This document shows positions 1,419-59,610 of a stretch of 64,000 nucleotides of DNA, piece after piece. Where the stretch lies: the NCBI GenBank assembly GCA_965231045.1, contig OZ246406.1:450208-514207 (forward strand). Reading direction: 5' to 3'. The stretch is from an uncultured Candidatus Saccharibacteria bacterium. Lineage in GTDB: Bacteria; Patescibacteriota; Saccharimonadia; Saccharimonadales; JAGQNJ01. Within the stretch, counting starts at the first letter, position 1; every line of letters begins with the position of its first letter. The translations under genes were made by a program, and so were the position numbers. The notes under the pieces are model-generated. The model was not told the DNA's origin. It did not search any database and was given only the letters and a program-made list of their open reading frames with translations.

Positions 1419-3242
1419 CTACTTGTTGAGGCGTTTGCGCTTGTTAGGATCGAGTTCTTTTTTGCGCAATCGCAGGTTTTTTGGTGTAACTTCCAGCACT
1501 TCGTCGTTTTCAATAAAGTCGATGCACTGCTCTAGGCTAAAAATAGTCGGTGGCGTTAGCTGCACCACACCATCACTACTTGAGCTACGCATGTTCGTCA
1601 GGTGCTTAGCCTTACAAACATTGATTTCCATATCGTCACCACGTTTGTTGAGCCCAATAATTTGACCGGCGTAAACCTTTTCGGCCGGACCAACAAAGCA
1701 GGTACCTCGTTCTTCGACATTCTGCAGAGCGTAGGGTGTCGTGGTGCCTGTTTCGAAGGCAATCAGCACACCGTTGCGAAGTTGCTGTAGGGGCGCGCCA
1801 AGCGGCTCGTAGCCAATCATCAGGCTATTCATGATAATCGTTCCCTTGGTGTTAGTCATCAGAATATTTCTAAGACCAAGTAGTGCCCGAGTTGGTAATT
1901 CATAGACTAGTTTAGTCACGCCTTTGGGGCTAGCAAATTGCTCTTTTAGATTAGCTCGGCGTGCACCAAGCTCTTGTTGGACCGTGCCGACGTGTTCGGC
2001 TGGCACTTCAATAATCAATTCTTCGATCGGCTCAACGGTTTGGCCATTTTCTTCTTTGGTCACAACTTGTGGACGGCCAACTTCAAACTCAAAGCCTTCG
2101 CGTCGCATAGTCTCAATTAGCACGCTTAAATGTAGTTCGCCACGGCCAGACACCAAAAAGCCAATGCCTTGCTCTTCGACGCGCAAGCCCACATTGGTTT
2201 CTAACTCTTTTTGCAGCCGATCGCCAATTTGTCGGCTAGTGTTAAACTCACCTTCTAAACCTTTGAATGGGGAAGTATTGGGGCCTAAATAAATCTTGAG
2301 AGTTGGTGCTTCGACTTCCAGCACTGGAAGTGCTTCAGGTTGATCAGCATCGGCAATCGTCTCGCCGATCTGAGCATTAGCCACACCCGTCAGTTGCACA
2401 ATATCGCCAGCCACACCTTCATCAACTTCAAACTTGCTCACGCCATGGCTCATGTAGACATTGTCGATCTTAGCTTTGGCCTGGGTGCCGTCTTTGAGGC
2501 ATAAAGTAACTTGGTCTCCACCTTTGACACGGCCACGAGTAATTCGCCCAATAGCATACTTGCCCTTAAAGCTATCCCACGCCAGAGCAGTAACAAGCAT
2601 CTGAAAAGGCTTGTCGAGTTCAATTTGCGGGGCAGGGATGTGCTCAACAATGGCTTCAAAAATCGGCTCTAGATCCCCTGCTGCTTCTGGATCACTAGGA
2701 ATTTCCTTCCAAGCTTTACCAGCCCGGCCAACCGCGTAATAAACAGGGTAGTGAAGCTGGTCTTCGTGCACAGCAAGCTCCAAAAACAGATCAGCTAACT
2801 CATCTTCGACTTCTTTGATACGTGATCCAGGCTTGTCGATTTTATTGATAATCACAATTGGTTTAAGCTCATTGGCTAGGGCCTTACCCAGCACAAACTT
2901 GGTTTGAGGCATCGGGCCTTCCTGGGCGTCGACGATTAAAATACTGCCATCGGCCATATTTAGTGTGCGCTCGACTTCCCCACTAAAATCCGCATGTCCT
3001 GGTGTGTCAACGATGTTAATTCGATAATCACCATGCTGCACTGCCGTAACTTTGGCAGTAATGGTAATTCCGCGTTCGCGCTCTTGGTCGCCACTGTCCA
3101 TAATGAGTTCTTGGCCCATTTCGGCTTGGTTATCACGAAACGTTTTGGATTGCTTCAATAGCCCATCAACCAAGGTAGTTTTACCATGGTCAACGTGCGC
3201 AATAATCGCAATGTTACGAATTTTGGTTGGATCTTGTTTCAT
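1419..3242 (-). CDS. typA: translational GTPase TypA/BipA
   Basis: 607 aa. G1 motif [26 protein letters not shown], and EF-G-like C-terminal domains. Confidence 0.92.
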
Positions 3243-3330: not shown

Positions 3331-4545
3331 TTAACGATCGATGAATGTTAGGGCATGGCCAACTTTGCCAGCTCGCCCAGCTCGACCAATACGGTGCACA
3401 TAGTCATCGTAAGTTTTTGGTGTCGAGTAGTTAATCACGTGGGTGACATCAATCACGTCAATACCACGCGCCGCTACATCAGTAGCTACCAAGATAGTCA
3501 CTTGGTTGTCTTTGAATCGCTTCAATGAGCGTTGGCGCTGACCTTGTGATTTACCACCATGAATTGCATCAGCCGAAAAGCCACGAGCAATCAGTTCATT
3601 GCTCAGGCTCTCGACACTTCGCTGCGTATCATCAAAGATAATTGCCTTGGCGATGTTCTGGTTAGTCAAAAGGTCATGCAAGTGCTCGATCTTTCGACCG
3701 CCGTTAATTCGTACGACATCTTGGTGAATATTCTCACCAGTTTCGCCAGTTTTTACAGAGATCATAACTGGATTGTTAGCAAACGTCTCAATCAACGATT
3801 TTACGCGTGCATCAAGTGTTGCCGAGAAAAACAACGATTGCCGCTTCTCAGATAGGTTGCTAAGAATACTGCGAACATCGTTCACAAAACCCATATCTAG
3901 CATACGGTCAACTTCGTCGAGGACGACGCAGTTAAAGTCGCGTAGTTGTAGGCTTCGGCGTTCAATATGGTCTTTGATACGGCCAGGTGTACCGATAACC
4001 ACTCGTGGGTTTCGGCGCAAATCGCTCAGTTGTCGGCCCATACCAGATCCACCGATTAATACAGCTCGACGCAAGTTACTGTCTTTGCTAAGCACATAAA
4101 ACTCTTCGTCGATTTGCTGAGCCAGCTCGCGTGTTGGTGCTACCACCAAAACTTTAGCGTTGTTGTTCATGATTGCCTGGATGGCTGGTACGGCAAAAGC
4201 GGCTGTCTTACCTGTTCCTGTATCGGCAATACCGATAATGTCGCGGCCAGCTAAAATCTCTGGAATTGCTTGATCCTGAATTGGCGAAGGCGTTGTAAAC
4301 CCTTTTCGCTCCAAGTTTCGAACCAATAGTTGATTTAGGCCAAAATCAGCAAACTGATGTTTGGCTTCATAGGTTGTCTGTTCTTTAGGTGTTGCCACCT
4401 TAACAAAACGGCTTGGATCAATGTAGTCTTTCTTAAGACCGCCGCGCCTTGGCGCACGATTTTGTGAAAATGACCGGCTCCGGCCACCGCCGTGATAGTT
4501 GCCGCCACTTCGGCGACCTGAATTAAAGTTTTTATTATAAGGCAT
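3331..4545 (-). CDS. DEAD-box ATP-dependent RNA helicase with RGG-rich N-terminus
   Basis: Q-motif GFTTPSPIQ, motif I ADTGTGKTAAF, motif II DEVD, SAT, and HRIGRAGRAG motif VI. Confidence 0.9.
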   Translation of the reverse strand: MPYNKNFNSGRRSGGNYHGGGRSRSFSQNRAPRRGGLKKDYIDPSRFVKVATPKEQTTYEAKHQFADFGLNQLLVRNLERKGFTTPSPIQDQAIPEILAGRDIIGIADTGTGKTAAFAVPAIQAIMNNNAKVLVVAPTRELAQQIDEEFYVLSKDSNLRRAVLIGGSGMGRQLSDLRRNPRVVIGTPGRIKDHIERRSLQLRDFNCVVLDEVDRMLDMGFVNDVRSILSNLSEKRQSLFFSATLDARVKSLIETFANNPVMISVKTGETGENIHQDVVRINGGRKIEHLHDLLTNQNIAKAIIFDDTQRSVESLSNELIARGFSADAIHGGKSQGQRQRSLKRFKDNQVTILVATDVAARGIDVIDVTHVINYSTPKTYDDYVHRIGRAGRAGKVGHALTFIDR

Positions 4546-4734
4546 TAAAATAACCCTTCGTTTTAGAGGCTTTCGCCCTTGATATTACTTCGATTGTGAT
4601 AATGAAATATCGAGTAATACGTCTAAAACAAACCCGGGTTCACTAATTACAATGTCCATATACATTAGCATTATTTTTAAGAGGTGTCAACAGTTTAGCC
4701 CCTACTTTCTTGTTTCTGCAAGAAAGCTAGCAAA

Positions 4735-4872
4735 GAACCGACAGGCGACTGGCTCGTATGATGCAACCACCTGTCAAAGCACACAACAGCCTCAGTAACT
4801 CGCTCCGCTCAGACATCCCTCGGCTTTATAGTTGTGCCTTTGCCGTGTTTGCTCAGCCTCCCCAGAGCCTGG
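4735..4872 (+). repeat. G+C-rich intergenic repeat, copy A (left flank of the R-M cassette)
   Basis: Collinear anchor blocks shared with copy B in inverted orientation: CAGGCGACT 4742-4750, ACTCGCTC 4798-4805, CAGAGCCTGG 4863-4872. It also shares blocks with the copies at 35453-35517, 32329-32420 and 26350-26518. Aligned by eye. Confidence 0.55.
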
Positions 4873-4906
4873 GAATATTACCTTACCTCTGATAGTATAA
4901 ATATCA

Positions 4907-7384
4907 ATGAGTAAAGAGGCTGCTGCTCGAATCAAAATCAATAAACTGCTTGAGGAAGCTGGTTGGGATTTTGATCAAAATATTAAGGTTGAGGCTGGCG
5001 TAAACATTAACGAAGTTGGTGATGATTACGAGCACAGTAAACATGGATTTATTGATTACTTACTGCTGGATGACAAGGGTTTCCCTCTTTTAGTTCTGGA
5101 GGCAAAAAAAGAAAGCAAAAGTCCGCTAGATGGTAAAGAGCAAGCAAGGAATTACGCAAGAAGCAATAAAGCCAGATTTATCATTCTAAGCAACGGTAAC
5201 CTGCATTACTTTTGGGATACAGAACATGGCACCGAAAAGTTAATCACTGACTTCCCTTCACAAAAATCATTACTTGATTTGCAGGATTACAAACCAGACC
5301 ACAAGACACTTGCCGGTGAGAAAGTTCAAGGAGATTACATTGCTCTCAGTCAAATGCCAAACTATGCTGAAGATCCAGACTGGCTGGCCGGAGGCCACAA
5401 GCAAGAAGCATTCAAAGATCGCCATGGCTTAAAGTTTATGCGCTACTACCAGCTCGATGCAATCCATGCCATCCAAGATGCTGCTAAAGAAGGTAAAGAG
5501 CGCTATCTGCTTGAGATGGCAACAGGTACTGGCAAAACTCTTACAACGATAGCAATCTGCAAACTATTTTTAAGAACTGGAAATGCCAGCCGAATACTAT
5601 TTTTGGTTGACCGTATAGAACTAGAGAAGCAAGCAGCTAAGGACTTTAAGGCAATCAAAAATGACTATTTGACTAGTGTTTACAAAGAAAATAAAGATGA
5701 TTGGCGCAAAGCAAATATAGTGATCTCCACAGTCCAGACGCTAATGGCCGGCGACCGATACAAAAAGGAATTTGACCCTACAGATTTTGATCTAGTAATT
5801 TCAGATGAAGCACACCGCTCCATCGGTGGCAACTCACGCAGTGTATTCGAATACTTCATTGGCTACAAACTTGGCTTAACTGCCACTCCAAAAGACTATC
5901 TAAAACATGTAGATACAAACAAAGAGAGTCAAAAGGACCAAGAGCGACGGCAGCTATTAGACACTTACAAAACCTTTGGTTGTGATAGTGGTGAGCCGAC
6001 ATATCGTTATGACCTAAAAAAGGGTGCCGCAGATGGCTTTTTGATTCAGCCAACAGTGGTCGATGCACGTACAGAGATAACTACCCAACTACTTAGTGAT
6101 GAAGGTTACGAAGTTGAACGCAAGAATGACGAAGGCGATATTGAAAAACAAGTTTACTTTAGTCGTCAATTTGAGCGTAAGTTCTTTAACGAAGATACGA
6201 ACGTTGCTTTCTGTAAGGCTTTTGTAGATAACGCGTTACGCGATCCAATTAGTCAGGAAGTTGGTAAAAGCCTTATTTTCTGTGTAACTCAAGACCATGC
6301 GCAAAAGATTACTCTAATACTAAATCAAATTGCCGACAAAAAATGGCCTGGAAAGTACAGTTCCGACTTTGCAATTCAAGTAAGTAGCAACGTAGACGCC
6401 GCACAAGAAATGACCACTAAGTTTAGCAACAACAACCTTAATGGCACAACTCGCTTTAAAGATGGCTACAAATCCAGCCGTACGCGAATTTGTGTAACGG
6501 TTGGGATGATGACAACTGGATACGACTGCCCTGACATTCTAAACGTTGCTTTTATGCGTCCTGTATTCAGCCCTGCAGATTTTATACAAATGAAAGGCCG
6601 TGGCACGCGAAGAGCCGTATTTAGCTACGAGGACGAAACCAAAGAAAAGTTTGAGGTTCCCAAAAAAGCCTTCAAGCTTTTTGACTTCTTCGCAGTATGT
6701 GAATACTTCGAGGAGAAGTTTAATTACGACGAGCAGCTTAAACTACCGCCAACCATTGGGCGCAAAAACGTTGATGAAGAAGAACGAACAGAACGCTACA
6801 TAACAGACGATTTGGAGCTTGGCAGACGCGACGATATCCAAACTATCAAAGAAGAGCAAATCGGTAATGAAGGCATGCGTGTGGACCGTGAAGTTTGGGG
6901 CGAAAAGGCGAAAGAAGCTATAGAAAAAGACCAAGAAATCTCTGAATTATACAAATCTGGCGATATTTATGGTGCCGAAAAGGCCGTGATAGAAAAACAC
7001 TTTGAAAAGCCAAAACTATACATCAGCCGTAGTAAGTTCAAACAAGCTTTCAAACTCGACCGTCGCCCGCATGTAAAAGAAATATTGGAATATGTGTTTG
7101 GTGATCGTGATAACTTTCAGTCAAAGGACGAAATTGTATCAGATGAATTCGAAAGCTTTGTGCAAAACGAAGGCATTACACCAGATCAATACAGTGCAGC
7201 ACGTGATGTATTTAGTGCATACACCACTGATCCACATGTACGTGAGCTGATTGACGAAGGTCGCTTTGCAGAGCTAGACTTCACAGGCCTCAAAATGGAC
7301 GACTGGATTAACCTAGCGCCTGAACTACGTAAACGCATTCCTGAATACGCCCGTGATTATGTTTTAGAAAAAGTTGCTGATTAA
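4907..7384 (+). CDS. hsdR: Type I restriction enzyme R subunit (HsdR-like, 825 aa)
   Basis: N-terminal PD-(D/E)xK HSDR_N-like region (IDYLLL...VLEAKK). Helicase motifs ATGTGKT, DEAH (VISDEAHRS), GLTATP, MKGRGTR. EcoEI_R_C-like C-terminus. Confidence 0.85.
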   Translation: MSKEAAARIKINKLLEEAGWDFDQNIKVEAGVNINEVGDDYEHSKHGFIDYLLLDDKGFPLLVLEAKKESKSPLDGKEQARNYARSNKARFIILSNGNLHYFWDTEHGTEKLITDFPSQKSLLDLQDYKPDHKTLAGEKVQGDYIALSQMPNYAEDPDWLAGGHKQEAFKDRHGLKFMRYYQLDAIHAIQDAAKEGKERYLLEMATGTGKTLTTIAICKLFLRTGNASRILFLVDRIELEKQAAKDFKAIKNDYLTSVYKENKDDWRKANIVISTVQTLMAGDRYKKEFDPTDFDLVISDEAHRSIGGNSRSVFEYFIGYKLGLTATPKDYLKHVDTNKESQKDQERRQLLDTYKTFGCDSGEPTYRYDLKKGAADGFLIQPTVVDARTEITTQLLSDEGYEVERKNDEGDIEKQVYFSRQFERKFFNEDTNVAFCKAFVDNALRDPISQEVGKSLIFCVTQDHAQKITLILNQIADKKWPGKYSSDFAIQVSSNVDAAQEMTTKFSNNNLNGTTRFKDGYKSSRTRICVTVGMMTTGYDCPDILNVAFMRPVFSPADFIQMKGRGTRRAVFSYEDETKEKFEVPKKAFKLFDFFAVCEYFEEKFNYDEQLKLPPTIGRKNVDEEERTERYITDDLELGRRDDIQTIKEEQIGNEGMRVDREVWGEKAKEAIEKDQEISELYKSGDIYGAEKAVIEKHFEKPKLYISRSKFKQAFKLDRRPHVKEILEYVFGDRDNFQSKDEIVSDEFESFVQNEGITPDQYSAARDVFSAYTTDPHVRELIDEGRFAELDFTGLKMDDWINLAPELRKRIPEYARDYVLEKVAD

Positions 7385-7746
7385 AAGAAGTCTGACGCTC
7401 TTTCTATGGCAATCTTATCAATTGTATTATCGTCATAATTCTGCGTGTGTGAAACTATAGTTAGCAAAACGATCTTGTCCCCACTTACTGCAAACCACAT
7501 GCGAGGCCATTGGCTAGGCCTTAAGCCAGAGCCTGGTACAGCCATTTCTACTTTCCAGAGTGACCAGATCGCATTTTGATGAATCCGATGAATTTTTCCT
7601 GGAGCAATTACTTCATCAGGACTTGTTGGATCAAATTGTTTTTCAAGTAGTCTCTCAACTGCGCTCAAACCAGCAGTCGTTCCGGGGTATTTCTTTACGA
7701 GTTGCTTGAGCTCCCCAGAGAACTGATCATGTCGCAGAAAATTCAT
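7381..7746 (-). CDS. putative RelE/ParE-superfamily-like toxin, partner of the Panacea antitoxin
   Basis: Start chosen at the internal Met (MNFLRHDQF...), which overlaps the upstream gene stop by 20 nt. The C-terminal pattern LWKVEM...RMWFAVSGDKIVLLTIVSH resembles the RelE/ParE core. Family assignment is tentative. Confidence 0.5.
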   Translation of the reverse strand: MNFLRHDQFSGELKQLVKKYPGTTAGLSAVERLLEKQFDPTSPDEVIAPGKIHRIHQNAIWSLWKVEMAVPGSGLRPSQWPRMWFAVSGDKIVLLTIVSHTQNYDDNTIDKIAIERASDFF

Positions 7747-8233
7747 TAAAATCAGTCCCTCTATAAAAAGCCAGGTCATATGGTATTTCTTCACTAAGCT
7801 TTGTACCAATGTAGGGTGCCTCAGCATGTGTCAAGTCTTCTAGTTGCTTCCCGTTCAAACCTCCATAGAGCTTTGAAACTCGTTGAAGAATAGCTATGTC
7901 GTCTTCATCAAACACTGACATATCAGGTTCAGCCGTGCAAGTATACGTCTCTGTTGGTTTATAACCAGGGACACCTTCTATGGCATCTATTCGCAATTTG
8001 CCTGCCTTTGCCATTTTTTGAACAACATTCGGCATATTCTCTGGGAAAGGACCCATGGGCAAGGCTTTATAGACGTCCCCTGTTAAGGTCTTCATCGATT
8101 CTTTGTATTCGTAGTGGTCAAAGTCAAGATAATAGAGAAGCTTAGCGAGTTTTTTCTTACCATGAAGAACTCCGCCCTGTTGTTTACAGAGGTATAGAAT
8201 CGCGTTCTCGTACTTATTCAATGCTACGGCCAT
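7727..8233 (-). CDS. Panacea/DUF4065 (SocA/GepA-like) antitoxin-domain protein
   Basis: 168 aa. KKLAKLLYYLDFDHYEYKESMKTLTGDVYKALPMGPFP is typical of DUF4065 (PanA) proteins. Confidence 0.7.
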   Translation of the reverse strand: MAVALNKYENAILYLCKQQGGVLHGKKKLAKLLYYLDFDHYEYKESMKTLTGDVYKALPMGPFPENMPNVVQKMAKAGKLRIDAIEGVPGYKPTETYTCTAEPDMSVFDEDDIAILQRVSKLYGGLNGKQLEDLTHAEAPYIGTKLSEEIPYDLAFYRGTDFNEFSAT

Positions 8234-8282
8234 AAAATTATTATAACAACAAACGCAATGTTTATCGACTGCTTATGCTTAA

Positions 8283-10871
8283 CTACTGACTCCAAACTTC
8301 GGAGATTTTGTCTTTTATTTTTTGCTCAAAAATGGTTATTAATTGACGATTTTGGTCGACTAATATATTTCTGAGCTCCATATAGTCTTTAGCAAGAATC
8401 CTTTGTTCGTCTATAGATGGCAACGGTATTTTTATTCTTTTCAATGCACCACCGTTAAACTGCGGTTGGGCTCCTCCTTGAACAAGTTGTCTTGCTTGCA
8501 TCCAATAATCTTGGCACTGTGCATATGCCCAGTAAAATTCTGGTAATATTTTGGATACATCAAAATTTAATCTAATTAAGAACGATGCGAATACCGCTGG
8601 CTCGTTGTCTGTATAGATAGCAGTTTTACCATAAGTCGCCCCAGTTCGTGCAACGAGCACATCATTTTGATGTAATAAGTATTTTTCAGCCTCTGCGGTT
8701 AGGTTAATGTACTTCGCACCATCTTTTTTGACTGAACCCATGTCGTCAATATCTGTAATACGCACAAGCCTCGCCGACCCCTTATCTTTAGCGCTAGCTG
8801 TAAAGCCGTATTCGATACTTGCTACTTCATTAAGCTCAAACTTAGGCCAAGATGGTTTAACCACAATGTTCATCCCTTTAACTTGAGACATCTCTTTGGC
8901 TAAATCGATGATTTTTTGGTAGCTGTCGAGCTCGGCAACAATTTCTTTCTGCAGCTCAATCGGTGGTAGTGGTATTTCAAGATTTTTTATTGAGGTTGAA
9001 TTTATGCTGGCCTGGTTAACGGCTCTTTGTGCAAATCTCTTTGCATCATCTGTAAACAAATCCGACTTAAATACGTATAAAGCGTACTCCGGGATTATTT
9101 TTGATGTATCAGGCCGTAGCCTAAGTAGGTTCGAACCATGTATAACTTTCTCTTTACTTTCAAAGAGTGCAGTCTTAGCTAAATGATCAATGCTGTTTAT
9201 ATGGCTGAAAAGAATATCGCCTTTTTGTAGATAATCATTCTCATTCACGTCATCAGTAGACCATTTAACTGCATCTAGATTTACAATACCTTTTGCGATT
9301 GTTTGTATTCTAGACACTTTGTGACCTATAGGTTCGTCAGTTTGTTTAACGTTTTTGCCATTTTTAATTTCTATAAAAATGTCGCTGAGTTTAGATCTTG
9401 GCCATTTTTGATTTTGACTTGTTTCTGATACCAAGTACCGCGAAGCTGTTAGGTTGTAATCGCCACTCTCAGCAATTTTGTCTCGGCTCACCGCAACTAT
9501 CTCGATTTGATCTACTTCTGCTGGTGAACCAATTATATCCGGACCCCCAACGGTACTTAGTCCAATGGTAAATAAACCAGATTTTTTGAGTTCGTCTTTG
9601 ATAGTTTGTATATCAGTTTTTGGTTCTTTTCTGTATCTTTGTAGTATCTCAGCAGTCAGCGGCAAGTCGTTATGTGCTATTGGACGACGCTGTGCACCAA
9701 GGTCAAAACCGTCGTGCTCAATTTTTGCAAAAATAATGTCTTTGGATTGTTTTGCTCTGCTGTTATCAAAGATTAAGATACTGGTCTTAACACCTGCATA
9801 CGGGTTAAAGACGCCGGCAGGGAGCGAAATAACCGCAAGTAGGCCATCTTCAACTAAGTTTTTGCGTAATTGCTTGTATGCTTTGCCGCTTTGAAAAATA
9901 ATGCCTTCGGGCACAATAATGCCAGCCCGGCCGTTTTGCTTGAGGTGGCTCATGATGTAGTCAACAAACAAAACTTCTGCACGAGAAGATTCAACACCAA
10001 ACTTATTGTGTGGGCGAATCCCACCCTTTGGTGACATAAAGGGCGGATTGGCCAAAATAATATCAAAGGTATCACCCCAACGCTCTTCACTTGTTAAGCT
10101 GTCATACTCGTAAATCTGCGGGTCATTATTTCCATGCAGGTACATATTGACTCGAGCAAGTTTAACCATGTCGCTACTTATGTCGTAACCTTCTAGGTTG
10201 CTCATGAGTTTTTGCTTTTCTTGATGAGTCAGTGACTTTTCGTTATTTTTTTTACCATTTTCATCAACACCGTCATGCTTTTCAACAATATGCTTATAGG
10301 CACTGATAAGGAAGCCCGCCGTGCCGCAAGCTGGATCCAAAATAGTGTCGTCCTTATCTGGATCCAGCACCTTTACAATGAAGTCAATAATGTGACGAGG
10401 TGTACGGAACTGCCCCGCATCGCCCTGTGAACCCATAATGCTGAGCAAGTACTCGAAAGCATTGCCAAGTTCTTCGCTGTGATTGTAGTCAAAAAACTCA
10501 ATTTCTTTTAGGAACAAGTTGAGCGTTTCTGGGTCTCGGTACGGCAAAAAAGCTTGACGGAATATATCACGAAACAATTGCGGTAACTGTGCGGCCGTAC
10601 TAAACTTTTCCAACGCTTCTGTATACATATTCAAGCGCTCTTGCGAGCCACTGCGTGGGTCCATGAGTTTGCGCCATGCATACTTTTCTAGATCACCAGT
10701 AAAGAAAGAGGCTTTTCCGCCAGCATCTTTGGCCTTGATATCCATATCATCCATGAACTTATATATAAGTGCGTTGGTGATTTGATCTATCTGCTGCTTT
10801 GGATCTGGGACCTTACCAACTAGAACCTGCCTAGCACTATCAATATGTCTTTTTGTATCAGCTGTAAGCAT
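8283..10871 (-). CDS. Type I R-M fused methyltransferase-specificity protein (HsdM-HsdS fusion, 862 aa)
   Basis: N-terminal HsdM_N-like region. AdoMet motif DPACGTAGFL and catalytic NPPF (ILANPPFMSP). The C-terminal ~400 aa holds two TRD/conserved-helix units (…IPLPPIELQKEIV… and …IPLPSIDEQRILA…) typical of HsdS. Confidence 0.85.
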   Translation of the reverse strand: MLTADTKRHIDSARQVLVGKVPDPKQQIDQITNALIYKFMDDMDIKAKDAGGKASFFTGDLEKYAWRKLMDPRSGSQERLNMYTEALEKFSTAAQLPQLFRDIFRQAFLPYRDPETLNLFLKEIEFFDYNHSEELGNAFEYLLSIMGSQGDAGQFRTPRHIIDFIVKVLDPDKDDTILDPACGTAGFLISAYKHIVEKHDGVDENGKKNNEKSLTHQEKQKLMSNLEGYDISSDMVKLARVNMYLHGNNDPQIYEYDSLTSEERWGDTFDIILANPPFMSPKGGIRPHNKFGVESSRAEVLFVDYIMSHLKQNGRAGIIVPEGIIFQSGKAYKQLRKNLVEDGLLAVISLPAGVFNPYAGVKTSILIFDNSRAKQSKDIIFAKIEHDGFDLGAQRRPIAHNDLPLTAEILQRYRKEPKTDIQTIKDELKKSGLFTIGLSTVGGPDIIGSPAEVDQIEIVAVSRDKIAESGDYNLTASRYLVSETSQNQKWPRSKLSDIFIEIKNGKNVKQTDEPIGHKVSRIQTIAKGIVNLDAVKWSTDDVNENDYLQKGDILFSHINSIDHLAKTALFESKEKVIHGSNLLRLRPDTSKIIPEYALYVFKSDLFTDDAKRFAQRAVNQASINSTSIKNLEIPLPPIELQKEIVAELDSYQKIIDLAKEMSQVKGMNIVVKPSWPKFELNEVASIEYGFTASAKDKGSARLVRITDIDDMGSVKKDGAKYINLTAEAEKYLLHQNDVLVARTGATYGKTAIYTDNEPAVFASFLIRLNFDVSKILPEFYWAYAQCQDYWMQARQLVQGGAQPQFNGGALKRIKIPLPSIDEQRILAKDYMELRNILVDQNRQLITIFEQKIKDKISEVWSQ

Positions 10872-12065: not shown

Positions 12066-12347
12066 CTACTGGGATTGTTTCCAGGGCTGGAGTTGCATCT
12101 CGATAACTAGACGATCATATACTGCCTGAGTATCCAGCTCGCACCCAGCCGCCTCTTGATCATCCAAGAACTTATCCATGCCCTCGGCTAGTTGATCTTC
12201 AACGGTCATTATTTGCAGCAGATCATTTGCGTCAAGGGCCTCAATAGCAACTTCAGTGTCCTGCATCATGAGTTGAGCTAACGCCGCGAAGCGCGCGTCA
12301 CATGCTTCGCGTTTCGGGCCTTCACACTCTATGCATCTCTCAACCAT
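12066..12347 (-). CDS. hypothetical acidic protein (93 aa)
   Basis: ORF co-oriented with and 19 nt downstream of 12367-13089. Confidence 0.45.
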   Translation of the reverse strand: MVERCIECEGPKREACDARFAALAQLMMQDTEVAIEALDANDLLQIMTVEDQLAEGMDKFLDDQEAAGCELDTQAVYDRLVIEMQLQPWKQSQ

Positions 12348-13089: not shown

Positions 13090-13197
13090 TACATTTCCCT
13101 TGGTAGTTTTAGTTTTTGTACCATCTTATTCTGATTATATGACCAGGGCGCAAATATATGCAATACGCTTATGTCAACATTGTAAACTTAACTACGT

Positions 13198-13845
13198 TTA
13201 TTTTTCGATTTCAAGAAGTTGAACATCAATAACTAGCACGGCATTTGGCGGCACAGGGTCCTGACCCTTTGAACCATAACCAACAGCCGGAGGGATAATT
13301 AAGCGCCGAATACCCCCGACTTTCATACCACCAACACCTTGTTCCCAGCCGGGTATAACTTGGTGTGCCCCATATGTAAACACAAACGGCACGATCTTGT
13401 TATCTTTATCAACCCGGTTCTGGTCAATTAGTTTGCCATCTGTTAGGTATACCTTATAAATAACGGCGGCTTTTTTATTGACCTTAATTTCATCGCCAGT
13501 GCCTGGCTGAAGATCTTGATAGAGTGCGTTCTTTTCACCCTTGTACTTATCAAACTGAGCAAAAGTCTCTGGCCCTGGCGCACTAGACTTACTAGATGAA
13601 CTCGATCCGCCAGATTGATCGGTGTTGCCTTCTATTCCACCCCCAAGTCCACTATTGCCAGATACGCTCAGGCTACTGCCGCTCTGGTCAGAATCTAGTG
13701 GAATGGCCTGGGCAACATTCGACTCACCCTTAACGGCTATTTGTTTAGGTTTCTGTTGGTTATGCCAAACTGCGTAACCAATAATGCCAGCTGTAATGAC
13801 TGTGAAGCCCCCTAAAACTAATCCGGCCTTTATCCCTGCGCGCAT
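13198..13845 (-). CDS. FKBP-type peptidyl-prolyl cis-trans isomerase, membrane anchored
   Basis: N-terminal TM. C-terminal FKBP core FVFTYGAHQVIPGWEQGVGGMKVGGIRRLIIPPAVGYG. Confidence 0.85.
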   Translation of the reverse strand: MRAGIKAGLVLGGFTVITAGIIGYAVWHNQQKPKQIAVKGESNVAQAIPLDSDQSGSSLSVSGNSGLGGGIEGNTDQSGGSSSSSKSSAPGPETFAQFDKYKGEKNALYQDLQPGTGDEIKVNKKAAVIYKVYLTDGKLIDQNRVDKDNKIVPFVFTYGAHQVIPGWEQGVGGMKVGGIRRLIIPPAVGYGSKGQDPVPPNAVLVIDVQLLEIEK

Positions 13846-18593: not shown

Positions 18594-18674
18594 GTTGACT
18601 CTTTATAAAGTAATACTATGCTAACTTGATTAATTTTTGTCAACAAAAAAGCACCGGCAGGATTTTTTGCAGGA

Positions 18675-19715
18675 CTACTTTATTTCTAGAACACGAAGGG
18701 CAATATTCGTTAATACCCCTTTGATAGTACCTATATGCATTGTTGGTTTTACGTCGTGCTCAATAAGTTCATATTTTGTAGGGAACTCCTCTTTCTCTAC
18801 GCTATATTCCCACCATTCCGCCTGTTTTTGTTTTCTCTCAGCGTATTTATAACCTTGTGATATATACCCAACAATTGGCATAAAGATCATTCCTGCTCTT
18901 GTAGCTGGCAAAGGTATAGTTAAATTTCTTGGCACAAAATCTTTCTCTGTTGATTGATTTGCACCGCTTAACCATTCTTCTTCTGTAATCCTTGTCTTCT
19001 TATCACTTTCTCTATCATCCAACCAGAGCTTGCCATCCTCACCCAGAAAAACATTTTGTATTCTCTCAAAGCGTTCCTGTGATGATGGTTCATGAGTAAT
19101 TACTAAGCGTCTTGGGGCGAGTGGTTTGTCTGGTTCTGCACTAACTGCTATCGGGTAACCTCTTACTTCAGGCGTAAATACTGGGACTTGTTCAAATGCT
19201 ATTCTTTTTCGTAATCCCCATAGGGATCTCTTTACTACCTCTCGTTCCTCAACAGTACGAGTCCAAGTCAATACTTCTGCGCCTGGAAATCCTTCTTCAC
19301 GCATAATTTCCAGGAACTCTCTGCATTGTTCACCAGCCACTTCACCCCATACATGCTCAGGTAGCGTACCGTCTCTCCGTATGCGTTCCGCTTCTTCAAT
19401 AGCTTCACGCTGTTCGTTTTCTTTCTCTATTTCCTCTACACTTTTGGGCACTTCTTCGCCTTCTTGAGCGCTTACTACTAATTGCTGGGATATTTCAGCA
19501 TTACTAATCGAACGAAGTCGTGCACGTTCTCTTCTGGACTCAATAATTTCTCTTAAGGATCCATCACCGTCAACCGAAGGTTCGTATGGGCCCCTAACTG
19601 TATCATGCGCGTGATTGCCAAGTGCAGCATTAAGATCCCGTATCAAACCATCCATTTTAACTGGGAAGCCATCCGGTCGATATAATGCTTCTTTATTAAA
19701 GTCACCATCTGTCAT
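18675..19715 (-). CDS. hypothetical protein (346 aa)
   Basis: Long ORF with no recognised domain. Confidence 0.5.
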   Translation of the reverse strand: MTDGDFNKEALYRPDGFPVKMDGLIRDLNAALGNHAHDTVRGPYEPSVDGDGSLREIIESRRERARLRSISNAEISQQLVVSAQEGEEVPKSVEEIEKENEQREAIEEAERIRRDGTLPEHVWGEVAGEQCREFLEIMREEGFPGAEVLTWTRTVEEREVVKRSLWGLRKRIAFEQVPVFTPEVRGYPIAVSAEPDKPLAPRRLVITHEPSSQERFERIQNVFLGEDGKLWLDDRESDKKTRITEEEWLSGANQSTEKDFVPRNLTIPLPATRAGMIFMPIVGYISQGYKYAERKQKQAEWWEYSVEKEEFPTKYELIEHDVKPTMHIGTIKGVLTNIALRVLEIK

Positions 19716-19765
19716 GCCAATATTTATACTATAAAAAGCTATTTTTGTAAATAGTCTGCTGGAAT

Positions 19766-19790
19766 CAAAAAAGCACCTCGTGTGAGATGC
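19766..19790 (-). terminator. intrinsic terminator after the displaced tmRNA 3'-end copy
   Basis: Minus strand reads GCATCTC-ACAC-GAGGTGC followed by TTTTTT. Confidence 0.6.
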
Positions 19791-19796
19791 GATTTT

Positions 19797-19815
19797 TGGT
19801 GGAGCTGCCGAGTAC
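19797..19815 (-). repeat. 19-nt exact duplicate of the tmRNA 3' end (T-stem 3' strand + acceptor + ACCA)
   Basis: TGGTGGAGCTGCCGAGTAC at 19797-19815 is identical to 19969-19987. Similarity continues into the GATTTT flank. Confidence 0.9.
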
Positions 19816-19930
19816 GAACTATTTTGCGCCTAGGGACAAAATTGCTTCGCAATTGCCCATGGCGGCCAAGCAAGGATTCCTCAAACTGCCACTGGCAGTT
19901 CTCACCCTCACGGCCAGCACTCGAACGTCA

Positions 19931-19966
19931 AACAAAAAATCTCCATTCCATAAGGAATCGAGATTT
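19931..19966 (-). terminator. intrinsic terminator 2 nt after the tmRNA 3' end (inside the insert)
   Basis: Minus strand reads AAATCTC-GATTCCTTATGGAATG-GAGATTT followed by TTTGTTTG. Confidence 0.5.
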
Positions 19967-19968
19967 TG

Positions 19969-20381
19969 TGGTGGAGCTGCCGAGTACTGCCCTCGGGTCC
20001 GTCAGTTTATCTTTGTTAGTCTTCTACAGGTTTAGTCTATCTAAGTGTCTTAGGAGTATGTCTCAAGATAGACAGAAAAACATATTCCGCAGACTCTAAA
20101 GTCTTGGCACTAATAAGGAGTCAACTTATCAATGGGCATCCAGAAAATATGACATGCGTATTGAAATATCTGGCGTCATTCAAAGCACGGCTCCGGTAAT
20201 TAAACTGAAGCTGTTACGGTCTGAAGCTGTAGACCTGTAAATGCGTTAGCAAATACAGAAGCTACGCTCTTCAAACCGCGAGTAATAGCGTTTGCAATTA
20301 CTGGGTTTTGCCTATAACGCTGACAAGCGACCTGCAAGATCTAACTGATAAAGTCCAACGTCGAGCTTAAAATTCAGCCCC
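19969..20381 (-). ncRNA. ssrA: tmRNA (SsrA), 413 nt
   Basis: 5' GGGGCUGAAUUUUAAGCUCGACG and 3' CCGAG-GGCAGUA-CUCGG-CAGCUCC-A-CCA. The acceptor pairs GGGGCUG/CAGCUCC with the G3:U Ala identity pair. Candidate resume context UAAUU-GCA-AAC-GCU resembles E. coli UAGUC-GCA-AAC-GAC. Confidence 0.88.
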
Positions 20382-35370: not shown

Positions 35371-35401
35371 TAAAAAGCCCAGCCGATGCTGCGCTCTTTT
35401 T
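35371..35401 (-). terminator. intrinsic terminator after the displaced tRNA-Glu 3'-end copy
   Basis: Minus strand reads AGCGCAGC-ATCG-GCTGGGCT (one mismatch) followed by TTTTTAATTTTTTT. Confidence 0.5.
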
Positions 35402-35419
35402 GGTGACCTCAAGGGGAAT
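35401..35419 (-). repeat. 19-nt exact duplicate of the tRNA-Glu 3' end
   Basis: TGGTGACCTCAAGGGGAAT at 35401-35419 is identical to 35531-35549. Confidence 0.9.
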
Positions 35420-35530
35420 GTTGCTTCGCAACCGTTCGTTCCACTCACGAACGAACCGCCTGACGGGCTTCGAGCTCGCCTTTGGCGAGCAACCACGCAA
35501 AAGCCCGAGTACACAACTCGGGCATTCACG
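35420..35530 (+). repeat. 111-nt insert between tRNA-Glu and its 3'-end duplicate; partial member of the G+C-rich repeat family
   Basis: Collinear with copy A: GAACCG 35453/4735, GAC.GGCT(T)CG, GCAACCAC 35489-35496/4763-4770, CAAA(A)GC, and ACACAAC 35511-35517/4781-4787. Hairpins are GTTGC-TTC-GCAAC, CGTTCGT-TCCACTC-ACGAACG and GCTCGCC-TTT-GGCGAGC. Confidence 0.55.
35497..35523 (-). terminator. intrinsic terminator 8 nt after the tRNA-Glu 3' end (inside the insert)
   Basis: Minus strand reads GCCCGAG-TTGTGTA-CTCGGGC followed by TTTTG. Confidence 0.6.
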
Positions 35531-35605
35531 TGGTGACCTCAAGGGGAATCGAACCCCTATTGCCAGGATGAAAACCTGGTGTCCTAACCGTTAGACGATG
35601 AGGCC
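35531..35605 (-). tRNA. tRNA-Glu (anticodon UUC), CCA encoded
   Basis: GGCCTCATCGTCTAACGGTTAGGACACCAGGTTTTCATCCTGGCAATAGGGGTTCGATTCCCCTTGAGGTCACCA folds as a cloverleaf. Anticodon stem CCAGG/CCTGG, loop UUUUCAU. Confidence 0.9.
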
Positions 35606-52606: not shown

Positions 52607-52642
52607 CTCGTCAGAGCAAGCCCAAAGCCTCACTCTGACGAG
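52607..52642 (+). other. perfect 10-bp hairpin abutting the tRNA-Lys 5' end
   Basis: CTCGTCAGAG (52607-52616) / CTCTGACGAG (52633-52642). The last G is tRNA nt 1. The upstream GCGAGTTTACT 52598-52608 matches rc of copy A 4794-4803. Confidence 0.5.
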
Positions 52643-52718
52643 GGCCACTAGCTCAGCTGGTTAGAGCATCGGCCTCTTAAGCCGAGTGTCCTGGGTTCGA
52701 GTCCCAGGTGGCCCTCCA
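52642..52718 (+). tRNA. tRNA-Lys (anticodon CUU), CCA encoded
   Basis: GGGCCACTAGCTCAGCTGGTTAGAGCATCGGCCTCTTAAGCCGAGTGTCCTGGGTTCGAGTCCCAGGTGGCCCTCCA. Anticodon loop CUCUUAA. Confidence 0.9.
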
Positions 52719-52731
52719 ATACATTGTCAAT

Positions 52732-52758
52732 AATGCCATAACATGGCATTATTTTATT
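52732..52758 (+). terminator. intrinsic terminator 14 nt after tRNA-Lys
   Basis: AATGCCAT-AAC-ATGGCATT followed by ATTTTATT. Confidence 0.6.
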
Positions 52759-52869
52759 ATTGTGACTACCTTTAGTGCAGAGAATGGAAATAATTGGCAC
52801 ATTGAACGAGCAGAAATAGACCCATATTTTGCAGCTGAGACATGTAGAGAGATTGGCCAATTAGCATCT

Positions 52870-53328
52870 ATGGAGCTAGAACTTCCTGATGGGGTAATCT
52901 CCTCAAGGTTACTAGTAGATGGTCGAAGGCTATCTGGATTTCAGTGCTGTGTTGAGCCAGCGCTTGATACAGACCGTGACGGTCTTTTAAATTATCCGGA
53001 GTTTGCCGCGAGAGTACCAAATTTACTTAAGCTCTTTCATCTACGGCGTAAGACTGTCGGGAGTACAGTGCCGGGTTTTGGGATTAACATACTTGGTTCA
53101 CACGGATTTATCCAGACACACAGAGACGCCTATCTGTCCCCATCAAGTGCTACGGTCTTAGAAGGTGAGTCCACAACTACTATTACCGATCCGATAACTG
53201 GCATAGAACGTATATTTACACTAGCTGTTGGCGACTCCTTTACTCTGCAAAATACCGCAGGTAGTCCACCCCCTTTACACGGAGCGCGTAACTTAAAATC
53301 TAAACGACGAATTACATTTGTTATTTAA
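52870..53328 (+). CDS. 2OG-Fe(II) oxygenase-like protein (start uncertain: ATG 52870 or GTG 52762)
   Basis: HxD (QTHRDA) ... GD ... H (PLHGA) ... RRITF pattern. The track's ATG at 52708 overlaps the tRNA and is rejected. Confidence 0.5.
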   Translation: MELELPDGVISSRLLVDGRRLSGFQCCVEPALDTDRDGLLNYPEFAARVPNLLKLFHLRRKTVGSTVPGFGINILGSHGFIQTHRDAYLSPSSATVLEGESTTTITDPITGIERIFTLAVGDSFTLQNTAGSPPPLHGARNLKSKRRITFVI

Positions 53329-53459: not shown

Positions 53460-53470
53460 TGGCCCTCCAA
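53460..53470 (+). repeat. 11-nt exact duplicate of the tRNA-Lys 3' end (TGGCCCTCCAA)
   Basis: 53460-53470 is identical to 52709-52719 (acceptor 3' strand + discriminator + CCA + A), with partial similarity further 5'. Confidence 0.6.
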
Positions 53471-59386: not shown

Positions 59387-59403
59387 GGTACACCGGGAGG
59401 GAT
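59387..59403 (-). repeat. 17-nt exact duplicate of the tRNA-Arg 3' end
   Basis: GGTACACCGGGAGGGAT at 59387-59403 is identical to 59535-59551. Confidence 0.88.
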
Positions 59404-59494
59404 AATCGCACATTAATCTGTGCGCCGAGAATCTCGGGCAACAGACTAATGACCGAACCCTGGATCGAATCCCTGCTCGAAATGTCGAGCTAAA

Positions 59495-59519
59495 ATATAA
59501 AACCACCCATTCTGGGTGG
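59495..59519 (-). terminator. intrinsic terminator 14 nt after the tRNA-Arg 3' end (inside the insert)
   Basis: Minus strand reads CCACCCA-GAA-TGGGTGG followed by TTTTATATTTT. Confidence 0.6.
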
Positions 59520-59533
59520 CAAAATATTTTACC

Positions 59534-59610
59534 TGGTACACCGGGAGGGATTCGAACCCCCGACCCTCTGTTCCGAAGACAGATGCTCTAATCCGCTGAG
59601 CTACCGGTGC
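59534..59610 (-). tRNA. tRNA-Arg (anticodon UCG), CCA encoded
   Basis: GCACCGGTAGCTCAGCGGATTAGAGCATCTGTCTTCGGAACAGAGGGTCGGGGGTTCGAATCCCTCCCGGTGTACCA. Anticodon loop CUUCGGA. Confidence 0.9.

Follow-up and report, generated by a model that had tools for sequence, protein, structure and literature searches.

A 153-nt gene-less insertion between two copies of the tmRNA 3' end in a Saccharibacteria genome, with the same layout at neighbouring tRNA genes

Among the integration sites that lie in genes for tRNA and transfer-messenger RNA (tmRNA), together called t(m)RNA genes here, a class with a T-loop sublocation was reportedly distinguished by Williams in 2002. Cis-mobilizable elements (CIMEs) derive from integrative and conjugative elements or integrative and mobilizable elements, are flanked by att sites and encode no recombination or transfer functions. 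They are of kilobase scale, and their mobilization by a resident related integrase has been shown. Fragments of tRNA genes are a known product of element integration (PMC9897764). The ssrA (tmRNA) islands of Dehalococcoides are recombinase-driven, with a junction midway along the T-loop and a 20-bp repeat that can be present in tandem downstream of ssrA; 16 of 31 islands have a serine-recombinase module, DsiB/DsiA, adjoining attL, and some islands without an integration module were proposed to be cis-mobilizable (2011, PMC3146451). Products of homology-facilitated illegitimate recombination (HFIR) and sequential-displacement arrays are exemplified by the type VI secretion system immunity arrays of Vibrio cholerae (PMC5361080). 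The stretch analyzed here, referred to as the window, comprises 64,000 nt from an uncultured Candidatus Saccharibacteria bacterium (GCA_965231045.1, contig OZ246406.1, positions 450,208 to 514,207). Its ssrA gene is followed by 153 nt of inserted, gene-less DNA and then by a second, exact copy of the last 19 nt of the gene.

The features of this locus, numbered from the first letter of the window, are as follows.

19969-20381, minus strand: tmRNA (ssrA) gene, 413 nt (Rfam RF00023, 62.2 bits, E=3e-23, model positions 1-374).
19969-19987, minus strand: proximal 19-nt repeat, GTACTCGGCAGCTCCACCA in gene orientation, the working tmRNA 3' end.
19816-19968, minus strand: gene-less insert of 153 nt, unique, missing in the sister strain and in species related to it.
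19930-19967, minus strand: insert-borne terminator, AAAATCTC-GATTCC-TTAT-GGAAT-G-GAGATTTT, then TTGTTT.
19840-19854, minus strand: perfect mini-hairpin AATTGC-GAA-GCAATT, containing the 11-mer TTGCGAAGCAA.
19797-19815, minus strand: distal 19-nt repeat, a displaced tmRNA 3'-end fragment without a T-stem partner.
19763-19796, minus strand: ancestral tmRNA terminator, AAAATC-GCATCTC-ACAC-GAGGTGC-TTTTTTG, from a terminator scan and folding.

The tmRNA calls rest on Rfam, ARAGORN having missed the gene both in the window and in every relative. Because the full-length Rfam match spans 19969-20381, the copy at 19969-19987 is identified as the tmRNA 3' end. The T-arm of the gene reads CCGAG-GGCAGTA-CTCGG, the 3' strand of its acceptor stem is CAGCTCC followed by ACCA, and a promoter-like TTGCAA-18-TATAAT lies upstream (20420-20391). 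In the window TGGTGGAGCTGCCGAGTAC has exactly two occurrences, one at 19797-19815 and one at 19969-19987, and 100 dinucleotide shuffles produced no chance match to it with three or fewer mismatches. The two copies agree at 19 of 19 nt from T-loop position 5 through CCA (junction GGCA|GTA), and the proximal one thereby covers the last 3 nt of the T-loop, the 3' strands of the T-stem and acceptor stem, and ACCA. In gene orientation the order is tmRNA, proximal 19-mer, 153-nt insert, distal 19-mer and terminator. The duplication of the tmRNA 3' end was first noticed in an initial annotation made from the letters alone, and both the exact repeat and the position of the gene's end at the proximal copy are confirmed. 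That annotation also placed AAAATC after both copies, which is exact for the distal copy and offset by 1 nt at the proximal one (C+AAAATC). Independent assemblies, made from five or more sequencing runs (L001-L006), are 100% identical in this region, which is therefore not an assembly artefact; the proteins adjoining ssrA are also found on many Logan contigs. A search with the 19-mer core recovers tmRNA loci of Saccharibacteria metagenome-assembled genomes.

That the segment was inserted is established by comparison with relatives lacking it, a search which the initial annotation had proposed. Variants without 19816-19968 are found in two sister-strain contigs with flanks about 97% identical to the window (L045, Logan SRR12487046; L046, ENA ERZ4216102) and in the closest other species (L040, GCA_964610775.1). 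In all three, CCA is followed directly by AAAGTGCATCTCATGCGAGGTGCTTTTTTG or AAAACGCATCTCATGAGAGGTGCTTTTTTG (CCA-AAAACGCATCTCATGAGAGGTGCTTTTTTG in L040); in the sister-strain contigs it runs straight into AAAGTGCATCTCATGCGAGGTGCTTTTTTGTTGAC, and a dCMP-deaminase gene comes next. The same type of terminator, AAAaCGCATC..GGTGCTTTTTTG, stands directly behind CCA in at least eight Saccharibacteria besides the sister strain, L017, L022, L040/41 and L049-L051 among them, whereas in the window it stands behind the distal copy, as does its ortholog in L027. Because the terminator abuts CCA in the relatives and the distal copy in the window, 19816-19968 and one 19-mer were inserted and the native end was displaced. 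The 153 nt are thus an insertion and the distal copy occupies the ancestral position of the 3' end, in agreement with the earlier suggestion that this copy kept the ancestral terminator. The contigs of the window's own strain include no empty-site variant. The locus has the footprint of an att site, with a repeat that equals the 3' end of the gene from the loop onward, an intact gene accompanied by a fragment, and an empty site in relatives.

A further proposal of the initial annotation, that the insert arm comes from an attP fitted to a tmRNA whose T-loop is canonical, is not borne out. The sequence on which it was based, TAGTTC|GTACTCGG, is present directly 5' of the distal copy as described. 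Its likeness to a canonical loop consists of four bases, TTCG; no complement of CTCGG is present 7 nt upstream, the distal copy taken together with the sequence preceding it folds no better than shuffles (z=+0.15), and the tmRNAs of the clade all have loops of the GGCAGTA or GGCGGTA type. The idea that the distal copy is part of a tRNA-like minihelix was likewise dropped, no such fold being found.

Both terminators announced by the annotation are present. The scan and the fold confirm the strong one behind the distal copy, GCATCTC-ACAC-GAGGTGC-T6 at 19773-19790 (-13.4 kcal/mol, z=-5.8). The other, an AU-rich hairpin with a U-run at 19936-19967, starts 2 nt past the functional CCA as stated; its description as weaker is true only of its G+C content, since its longer stem makes it the more stable of the two (-17.1 kcal/mol, z=-5.4). 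It shares the design of A-tract, hairpin and T-tract with the native tmRNA terminators of relatives, and the tmRNA transcript probably ends there today.

The other three t(m)RNA genes of the window were compared with ssrA, and their features are given here in the same way.

35531-35605, minus strand: tRNA-Glu gene.
35401-35549, minus strand: tRNA-Glu repeat and insert, with ATTCCCCTTGAGGTCACCA (19 nt) at 35531-35549 and 35401-35419 and a 111-nt insert.
59534-59610, minus strand: tRNA-Arg gene.
59387-59551, minus strand: tRNA-Arg repeat and insert, with ATCCCTCCCGGTGTACC (17 nt) at 59535-59551 and 59387-59403 and a 131-nt insert.
52642-52718, plus strand: tRNA-Lys gene, with TGGCCCTCCA (10 nt) at 52709-52718 and 53460-53469 and 741 nt with orphan open reading frames (ORFs) in between.

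All four t(m)RNA genes are therefore followed by a copy of their own 3' end, and in three of them the intervening DNA is a gene-less insert of 111-153 nt. In these three short cases the repeat begins 2-3 nt before the end of the 7-nt T-loop, at junctions within one nucleotide of each other (GGCA|GTA in ssrA, TTCG|ATT in tRNA-Glu and TTCGA|AT in tRNA-Arg), and each insert opens with a terminator of its own. The Glu insert consists of four perfect hairpins, the first being the terminator (fold z=-4.6), and the Arg insert, which also opens with its terminator, is hairpin-rich (fold z=-7.5). As strings of perfect hairpins, both are within the four most hairpin-dense spots of the 64 kb. The 10-nt match at tRNA-Lys is far weaker evidence than the other repeats, and its interval may be a small islet of the same kind. 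That interval contains an orphan ORF of 206 aa (52708-53328), which has no Pfam, PHROG or NCBIfam match, as well as a convergent ORF, some 40 aa long, that has GGAGG as its ribosome-binding site.

Two sequence motifs are common to several of these sites. Against 0.08 expected, the 64 kb contain exactly three hairpins of the form CCGAG-N3-9-CTCGG, at 19980-19996 (the tmRNA T-arm), 35505-35521 (the Glu insert) and 59425-59437 (the Arg insert), which could represent a shared protein-binding site or common ancestry. In the Glu insert its loop is 7 nt long and ends in GTA, as the tmRNA T-loop does. The 11-mer TTGCGAAGCAA is present in both the tmRNA-site insert and the Glu insert (35421-35431), which is weak evidence at an uncorrected p~0.01 among six comparisons.

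The insert at the tmRNA site folds marginally better than shuffles (z=-1.96). Its coding potential was rejected, the only candidates being opposite-strand ORFs across the tmRNA (19782-20099 and 19787-20035) and peptides of 7-13 codons, all judged spurious. Rfam searches of all three inserts at permissive thresholds returned nothing credible; the sub-threshold hits were chance matches to L10_leader (24 bits versus 44) and tmRNA_permuted (23 versus 47), and with no Rfam score at gathering level the insert is not assigned to a known structured RNA family, permuted tmRNA included. Degenerate older tRNA copies, which serial insertions could have left as scars inside the inserts, were also sought, and the local alignments were no better than those of shuffles. 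No second copy of the tmRNA-site insert is present in the window or in any of the loci compared.

The tRNA-Glu and tRNA-Arg loci provide some indication of the age of their inserts. An identical tRNA-Glu gene without an insert lies 67 nt from pyk in L042, where its flank aligns with the distal flank in the window. In the sister strain the Glu insert is 98% identical (L052:1256-1367) and has a different context: upstream there is only a 10-nt copy (GAGCTCACCA) together with PLD-nuclease and HTH genes, and downstream come the distal copy in its full length, a further terminator and other genes over 2.7 kb, and then pyk; tRNA-Glu is not upstream of pyk in that strain. Such an arrangement is the pattern expected if successive insertions had been stacked at one att site. 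Since the Glu insert is kept at 98% identity in both strains, it appears to be old and to have been inherited vertically. Contigs of the Arg insert, which come from more than eight sequencing runs, are identical in it; an ENA scaffold of this locus (L054) was disregarded for its N gap and chimeric-looking tRNA end.

Most of about 20 independent Saccharibacteria tmRNA loci have an empty site. The following loci carry additional DNA at or near it.

L027: a 57-nt insert, then the diverged copy GGGCAGTACCACCAGCTCCACCA, then the ancestral terminator.
L026: a 1,724-nt insert with two orphan ORFs, the copy GTAACCGGCAGCTCCACCA, then a terminator native to L008.
L014: three partial copies of the tmRNA end, each followed by a homologous terminator, which separate pilin-like genes.
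L043: a gene for an HNH endonuclease, about 0.5 kb (HNH_3, 13168-13434), directly downstream of the tmRNA, with a partial copy.
L016: a GIY-YIG endonuclease gene (5405-5683) directly downstream of the tmRNA.
L015: a conjugative-element gene, for a type IV secretion system coupling protein, that lies about 2 kb downstream of the tmRNA.

The tmRNA site thus holds larger cargo elsewhere in the group. The junction is in the T-loop in L026, in the T-stem in L027 and in the acceptor stem in L014 and L043, and the three homologous terminators of L014 have diverged from one another. No integrase or other recombinase was found in the larger inserts of the relatives within the DNA available. Given the free-standing genes for homing-type endonucleases, nuclease-driven events possibly contribute to the variability of the site.

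Two other observations concern the surroundings of the tmRNA in relatives. A contig classed as viral (L007, IMGVR_UViG_3300009790_003404, positions 4480-5025; also L024 and L032) contains a lone tmRNA 3' fragment, GGACCCGAGGGCGGTACTCGGCAGCTCCACCA, and about 370 nt past it, after an ORF of 143 aa, a tmRNA 5' start (GGGGCTGAAATAGGTTCGAC...; tag ANDDFAPVGYALAA). This layout could represent a displaced fragment upstream of a gene, a permuted arrangement or a circular contig. A non-coding-looking block, ..ATCATCCCAGAGTAAAT..GAGGGGTGAACTTTTTTC[A/G]AGGTGC, is conserved in L042 (about 12100-12290), L014 (about 3000-3070), L040 and L043, located downstream of the tmRNA at distances between a few hundred nt and a few kb, and abutting a partial copy of the tmRNA end in L014.

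Downstream of the tmRNA, the window carries a second insertion.

18644-19777, minus strand: second strain-specific insertion, with the orphan gene ORF346 (18675-19715) and the 12-nt direct repeat GGTGCTTTTTTG at both ends.

The repeat is located at 19766-19777 and 18644-18655 and nowhere else in the window, and its copy at 18644-18655 is the 3' half of the tmRNA terminator of the sister strain. The insertion is absent from both sister-strain contigs, in which homology resumes at 18655. ORF346 matches nothing in Pfam, PHROG, NCBIfam or PDB, and its one homologue is 34% identical. It was considered as a hidden recombinase and rejected as an acidic, lysine/glutamate-rich orphan without a domain match.

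The tmRNA gene also differs between the two strains in one place. The T-stem is CCGAG/CTCGG in the window (19988-20007) and GTGGG/CCCAC in the sister strain (L045:9305-9333), the gene being otherwise nearly identical. With both strands of the stem changed and flanks that are 97% identical, the comparison indicates that the tmRNA 3' region was replaced by recombination. Among the species of the clade, T-stems differ through paired changes on both strands. As a separate observation, pyk is only 89% identical between the window and the sister strain and the major facilitator superfamily gene about 100%, and the genomes are therefore mosaic. The predicted tag reading frame of the tmRNA is unusually long at 31 codons (ANAITRGLKSVASVFANAFTGLQLQTVTASV plus stop; 20200-20295, minus strand) and coincides with an insertion of about 70 nt relative to the Rfam model.

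For the tmRNA site, the reading given preference here, with confidence that is about evenly divided for and against it, is that the 153 nt and the distal 19-mer are a gene-less remnant of site-specific integration at the block from the T-loop to the 3' end. Horizontally acquired DNA would have recombined into the 3' end of ssrA, most likely by an integrase-type route, through a shared core extending from the last T-loop nucleotides to the CCA end. Integration would have rebuilt the tmRNA 3' end and set an element-borne terminator directly behind it, and the native 3' end with the native terminator would have been pushed 172 nt downstream as an attR-like fragment. The DNA left between the att-like copies would then be either the joined outer arms of a larger element that underwent an internal deletion or a minimal cis-mobilizable remnant. 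The attP-type junction expected from this course is ..AAAATAGTTC-GTACTCGGCAGCTCCACCA-CAAAATCTCG.., and the empty-site junction ..CCCGAGGGCA-GTACTCGGCAGCTCCACCA-AAAATCGCATC... For this sequence of events we infer the enzyme, the parent element, the internal deletion and the present use of the proximal terminator. The reading is preferred because the exact repeat is the tmRNA 3' end and empty sites exist, because three perfect repeats share one T-loop junction that matches the Dehalococcoides islands, because the same tmRNA site holds larger inserts in relatives (L026, L014 and L043; 57 nt in L027), with a conjugative-element gene near the tmRNA in L015, and because insertions are stacked at tRNA-Glu. 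The shared CCGAG..CTCGG hairpin and the 11-mer would fit the protein-binding arms of related elements.

Several results weigh against integration by such a route. None of the 59 window ORFs searched has an integrase or other recombinase domain, and no serine-recombinase module of the DsiB/DsiA type was found among them. Neither a parent element nor an attP was detected in IMG/VR, scanned for exact matches to the three cores and three insert-internal words, or in phage and plasmid collections searched by blastn; three IMG/VR matches to the Arg core lie in unrelated contigs and were dismissed as chance. On reading the sequence, no inverted-repeat partner is seen upstream of any distal copy, as a T-arm-symmetric core site would have. 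The reading would also require that three independent elements had all been reduced to 111-153 nt. The adjacent ORF346 insertion has its 12-nt terminator repeat and no att repeat at its boundaries, and looks like illegitimate recombination, and the proximal flank resembles a native tmRNA flank of another lineage. With no adjacent integrase, the locus is not classed as an integrative element and is at most a remnant or a CIME-like relic. A miniature inverted-repeat transposable element (MITE) or insertion-sequence-type element was also considered and rejected; the insert is single-copy, a reading of its ends shows no terminal inverted repeats, and the duplication is 17-19 nt of gene sequence. 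No MITE-like family was found either, as the only further copy of any insert in the window and about 425 kb of related loci is the orthologous Glu insert of the sister strain.

Some of these points are what HFIR during natural transformation would predict, a process that needs no element-encoded enzyme and that we consider possible, on balance doubtful. A donor fragment from a different Saccharibacteria lineage, consisting of the tmRNA 3' region and about 150 nt of its own flank, would have been anchored by homologous pairing in ssrA and joined illegitimately at its other end in the T-arm hairpin of the recipient, yielding a complete gene with the donor terminator, followed by the 5'-truncated recipient end with its own terminator. 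Natural competence, with recombination of the DNA taken up, is known for Saccharibacteria (PMC10633639), and HFIR is able to integrate short linear DNA with homology at one end only, the other end being joined illegitimately (PMC3240628). The process would account for both the missing recombinase and the small size of the inserts. It is also consistent with the native-design terminator at the start of every insert, with similarity at the tmRNA site that runs 6 nt past CCA, and with the first 10 nt of the Glu insert, which, set against the native tRNA-Glu trailer of L053, agree at 8 of 10 positions by hand count (the whole local alignment is not significant, p~0.67). Each of the three homologous, diverged terminators of L014 stands behind a partial tmRNA end, and the ORF346 insertion is laid out alike, with a donor terminator copy, foreign DNA and a 5'-truncated recipient terminator; the T-stem difference despite 97% identical flanks likewise indicates allele replacement by recombination. 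Illegitimate junctions should scatter, however, and all three lie within one nucleotide in the T-loop, where the junction of L026 is found too, so that an unproven preference for hairpin loops would be needed. No donor with this flank is present among 18 Saccharibacteria-type tmRNA loci that share the 19-mer, the Glu and Arg inserts, made up of perfect, G+C-rich hairpins in a row, are unlike ordinary intergenic flank, and the shared CCGAG..CTCGG hairpin is left unexplained.

Another proposal, speculative and rather improbable, is a T-loop-directed insertion process in Saccharibacteria that acts in trans through a host- or helper-encoded recombinase or nuclease and seeds the 3' ends of many t(m)RNA genes with small hairpin modules and with gene cassettes. 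The inserts of 111-153 nt would then be complete minimal units and not products of decay, each with a terminator and, at Glu and Arg, with a T-arm-like CCGAG-N-CTCGG site. Even less probable is the view that they are complete and still-mobile miniature elements, that is, att-flanked hairpin modules served in trans by a recombinase of the genome or of a helper element. Three of the four t(m)RNA genes in 64 kb carry such an insert, with lengths confined to a narrow range; the repeats are perfect, hairpins are abundant and the T-arm-like one is shared, and the tmRNA-site insert is present in one and absent from the other of two 97%-identical strains. Against mobility, each insert is unique in the window and the approximately 425 kb of related loci, the window has no recombinase among its 59 ORFs, and the window's own strain has no empty-site variant among its contigs; the conservation of the Glu insert in both strains and of the Arg insert across sequencing runs points to vertical inheritance and not to turnover. 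It is very unlikely that the segment is retained mainly as a functional RNA or regulatory element, such as a small RNA or an insulator of transcription that separates ssrA from the gene downstream, with the duplication being incidental. The good terminator and the stable hairpins, particularly those of the Glu and Arg inserts (z=-4.6 and z=-7.5), would suit such a role. The tmRNA-site insert itself is only marginally beyond shuffles and matches no Rfam family; no homologue of it was found in any other genome, so neither conservation nor covariation backs a structure, and the sister strain and all related species manage without it.

Outside these sites, the window contains a type I restriction-modification cluster at 4907-10871, with an HsdR-like helicase at 4907-7384 and an N6_Mtase/Methylase_S fusion at 8283-10871, between which lies a gene with a SocA/Panacea antitoxin domain (7727-8233).

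The tmRNA locus provides a clean, dated example of an insertion, as strains that are 97% identical differ by it. Its wider interest is that each of the four t(m)RNA genes within this 64-kb part of an approximately 0.84-Mb genome of the Candidate Phyla Radiation is trailed by a copy of its own 3' end. If this proves general in Saccharibacteria, it would point to the main route by which these tiny genomes gain strain-specific genes, through either trans-acting recombination at the T-loop or tRNA-anchored illegitimate recombination after DNA uptake. Should T-loop-directed capture in trans be true, t(m)RNA 3' ends would be an integron-like capture platform in reduced, naturally competent genomes. 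Displaced fragments and insert-borne terminators also affect the annotation of tRNA and tmRNA genes and the prediction of their 3' ends.

Compared with the known systems, the locus most resembles integration products in its layout and departs from them in scale. Like the ssrA islands of Dehalococcoides, it has a repeat of similar kind, here of 19 bp, and a T-loop junction, GGCA|GTA; those islands are kilobases long and carry cargo genes, whereas this insert is 153 nt long and gene-less. As with the tRNA and tmRNA fragments at attL and attR, a complete gene and a partial 3' copy flank acquired DNA, the block of identity runs from the loop to the 3' end, and a new 3' flank is supplied; the described tRNA-fragment cases are about 9-23 kb or more and have an integrase, and the present insert is two orders of magnitude smaller and enzyme-less. 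With CIMEs it shares att-like copies at both ends and the lack of recombination or transfer genes in the 153 nt, and being far below the kilobase scale it is CIME-like in structure only. The V. cholerae arrays are similar in that an incoming homologous gene end with foreign DNA displaces the resident copy and leaves a truncated remnant downstream, repeats of which build arrays; they involve protein-coding genes and variable junctions, unlike the t(m)RNA anchors and the junctions clustered in the T-loop found here. Taken alone, the feature at the tmRNA site is a routine ssrA insertion footprint, which is unusual in its small size and in its recurrence at nearby tRNA genes.

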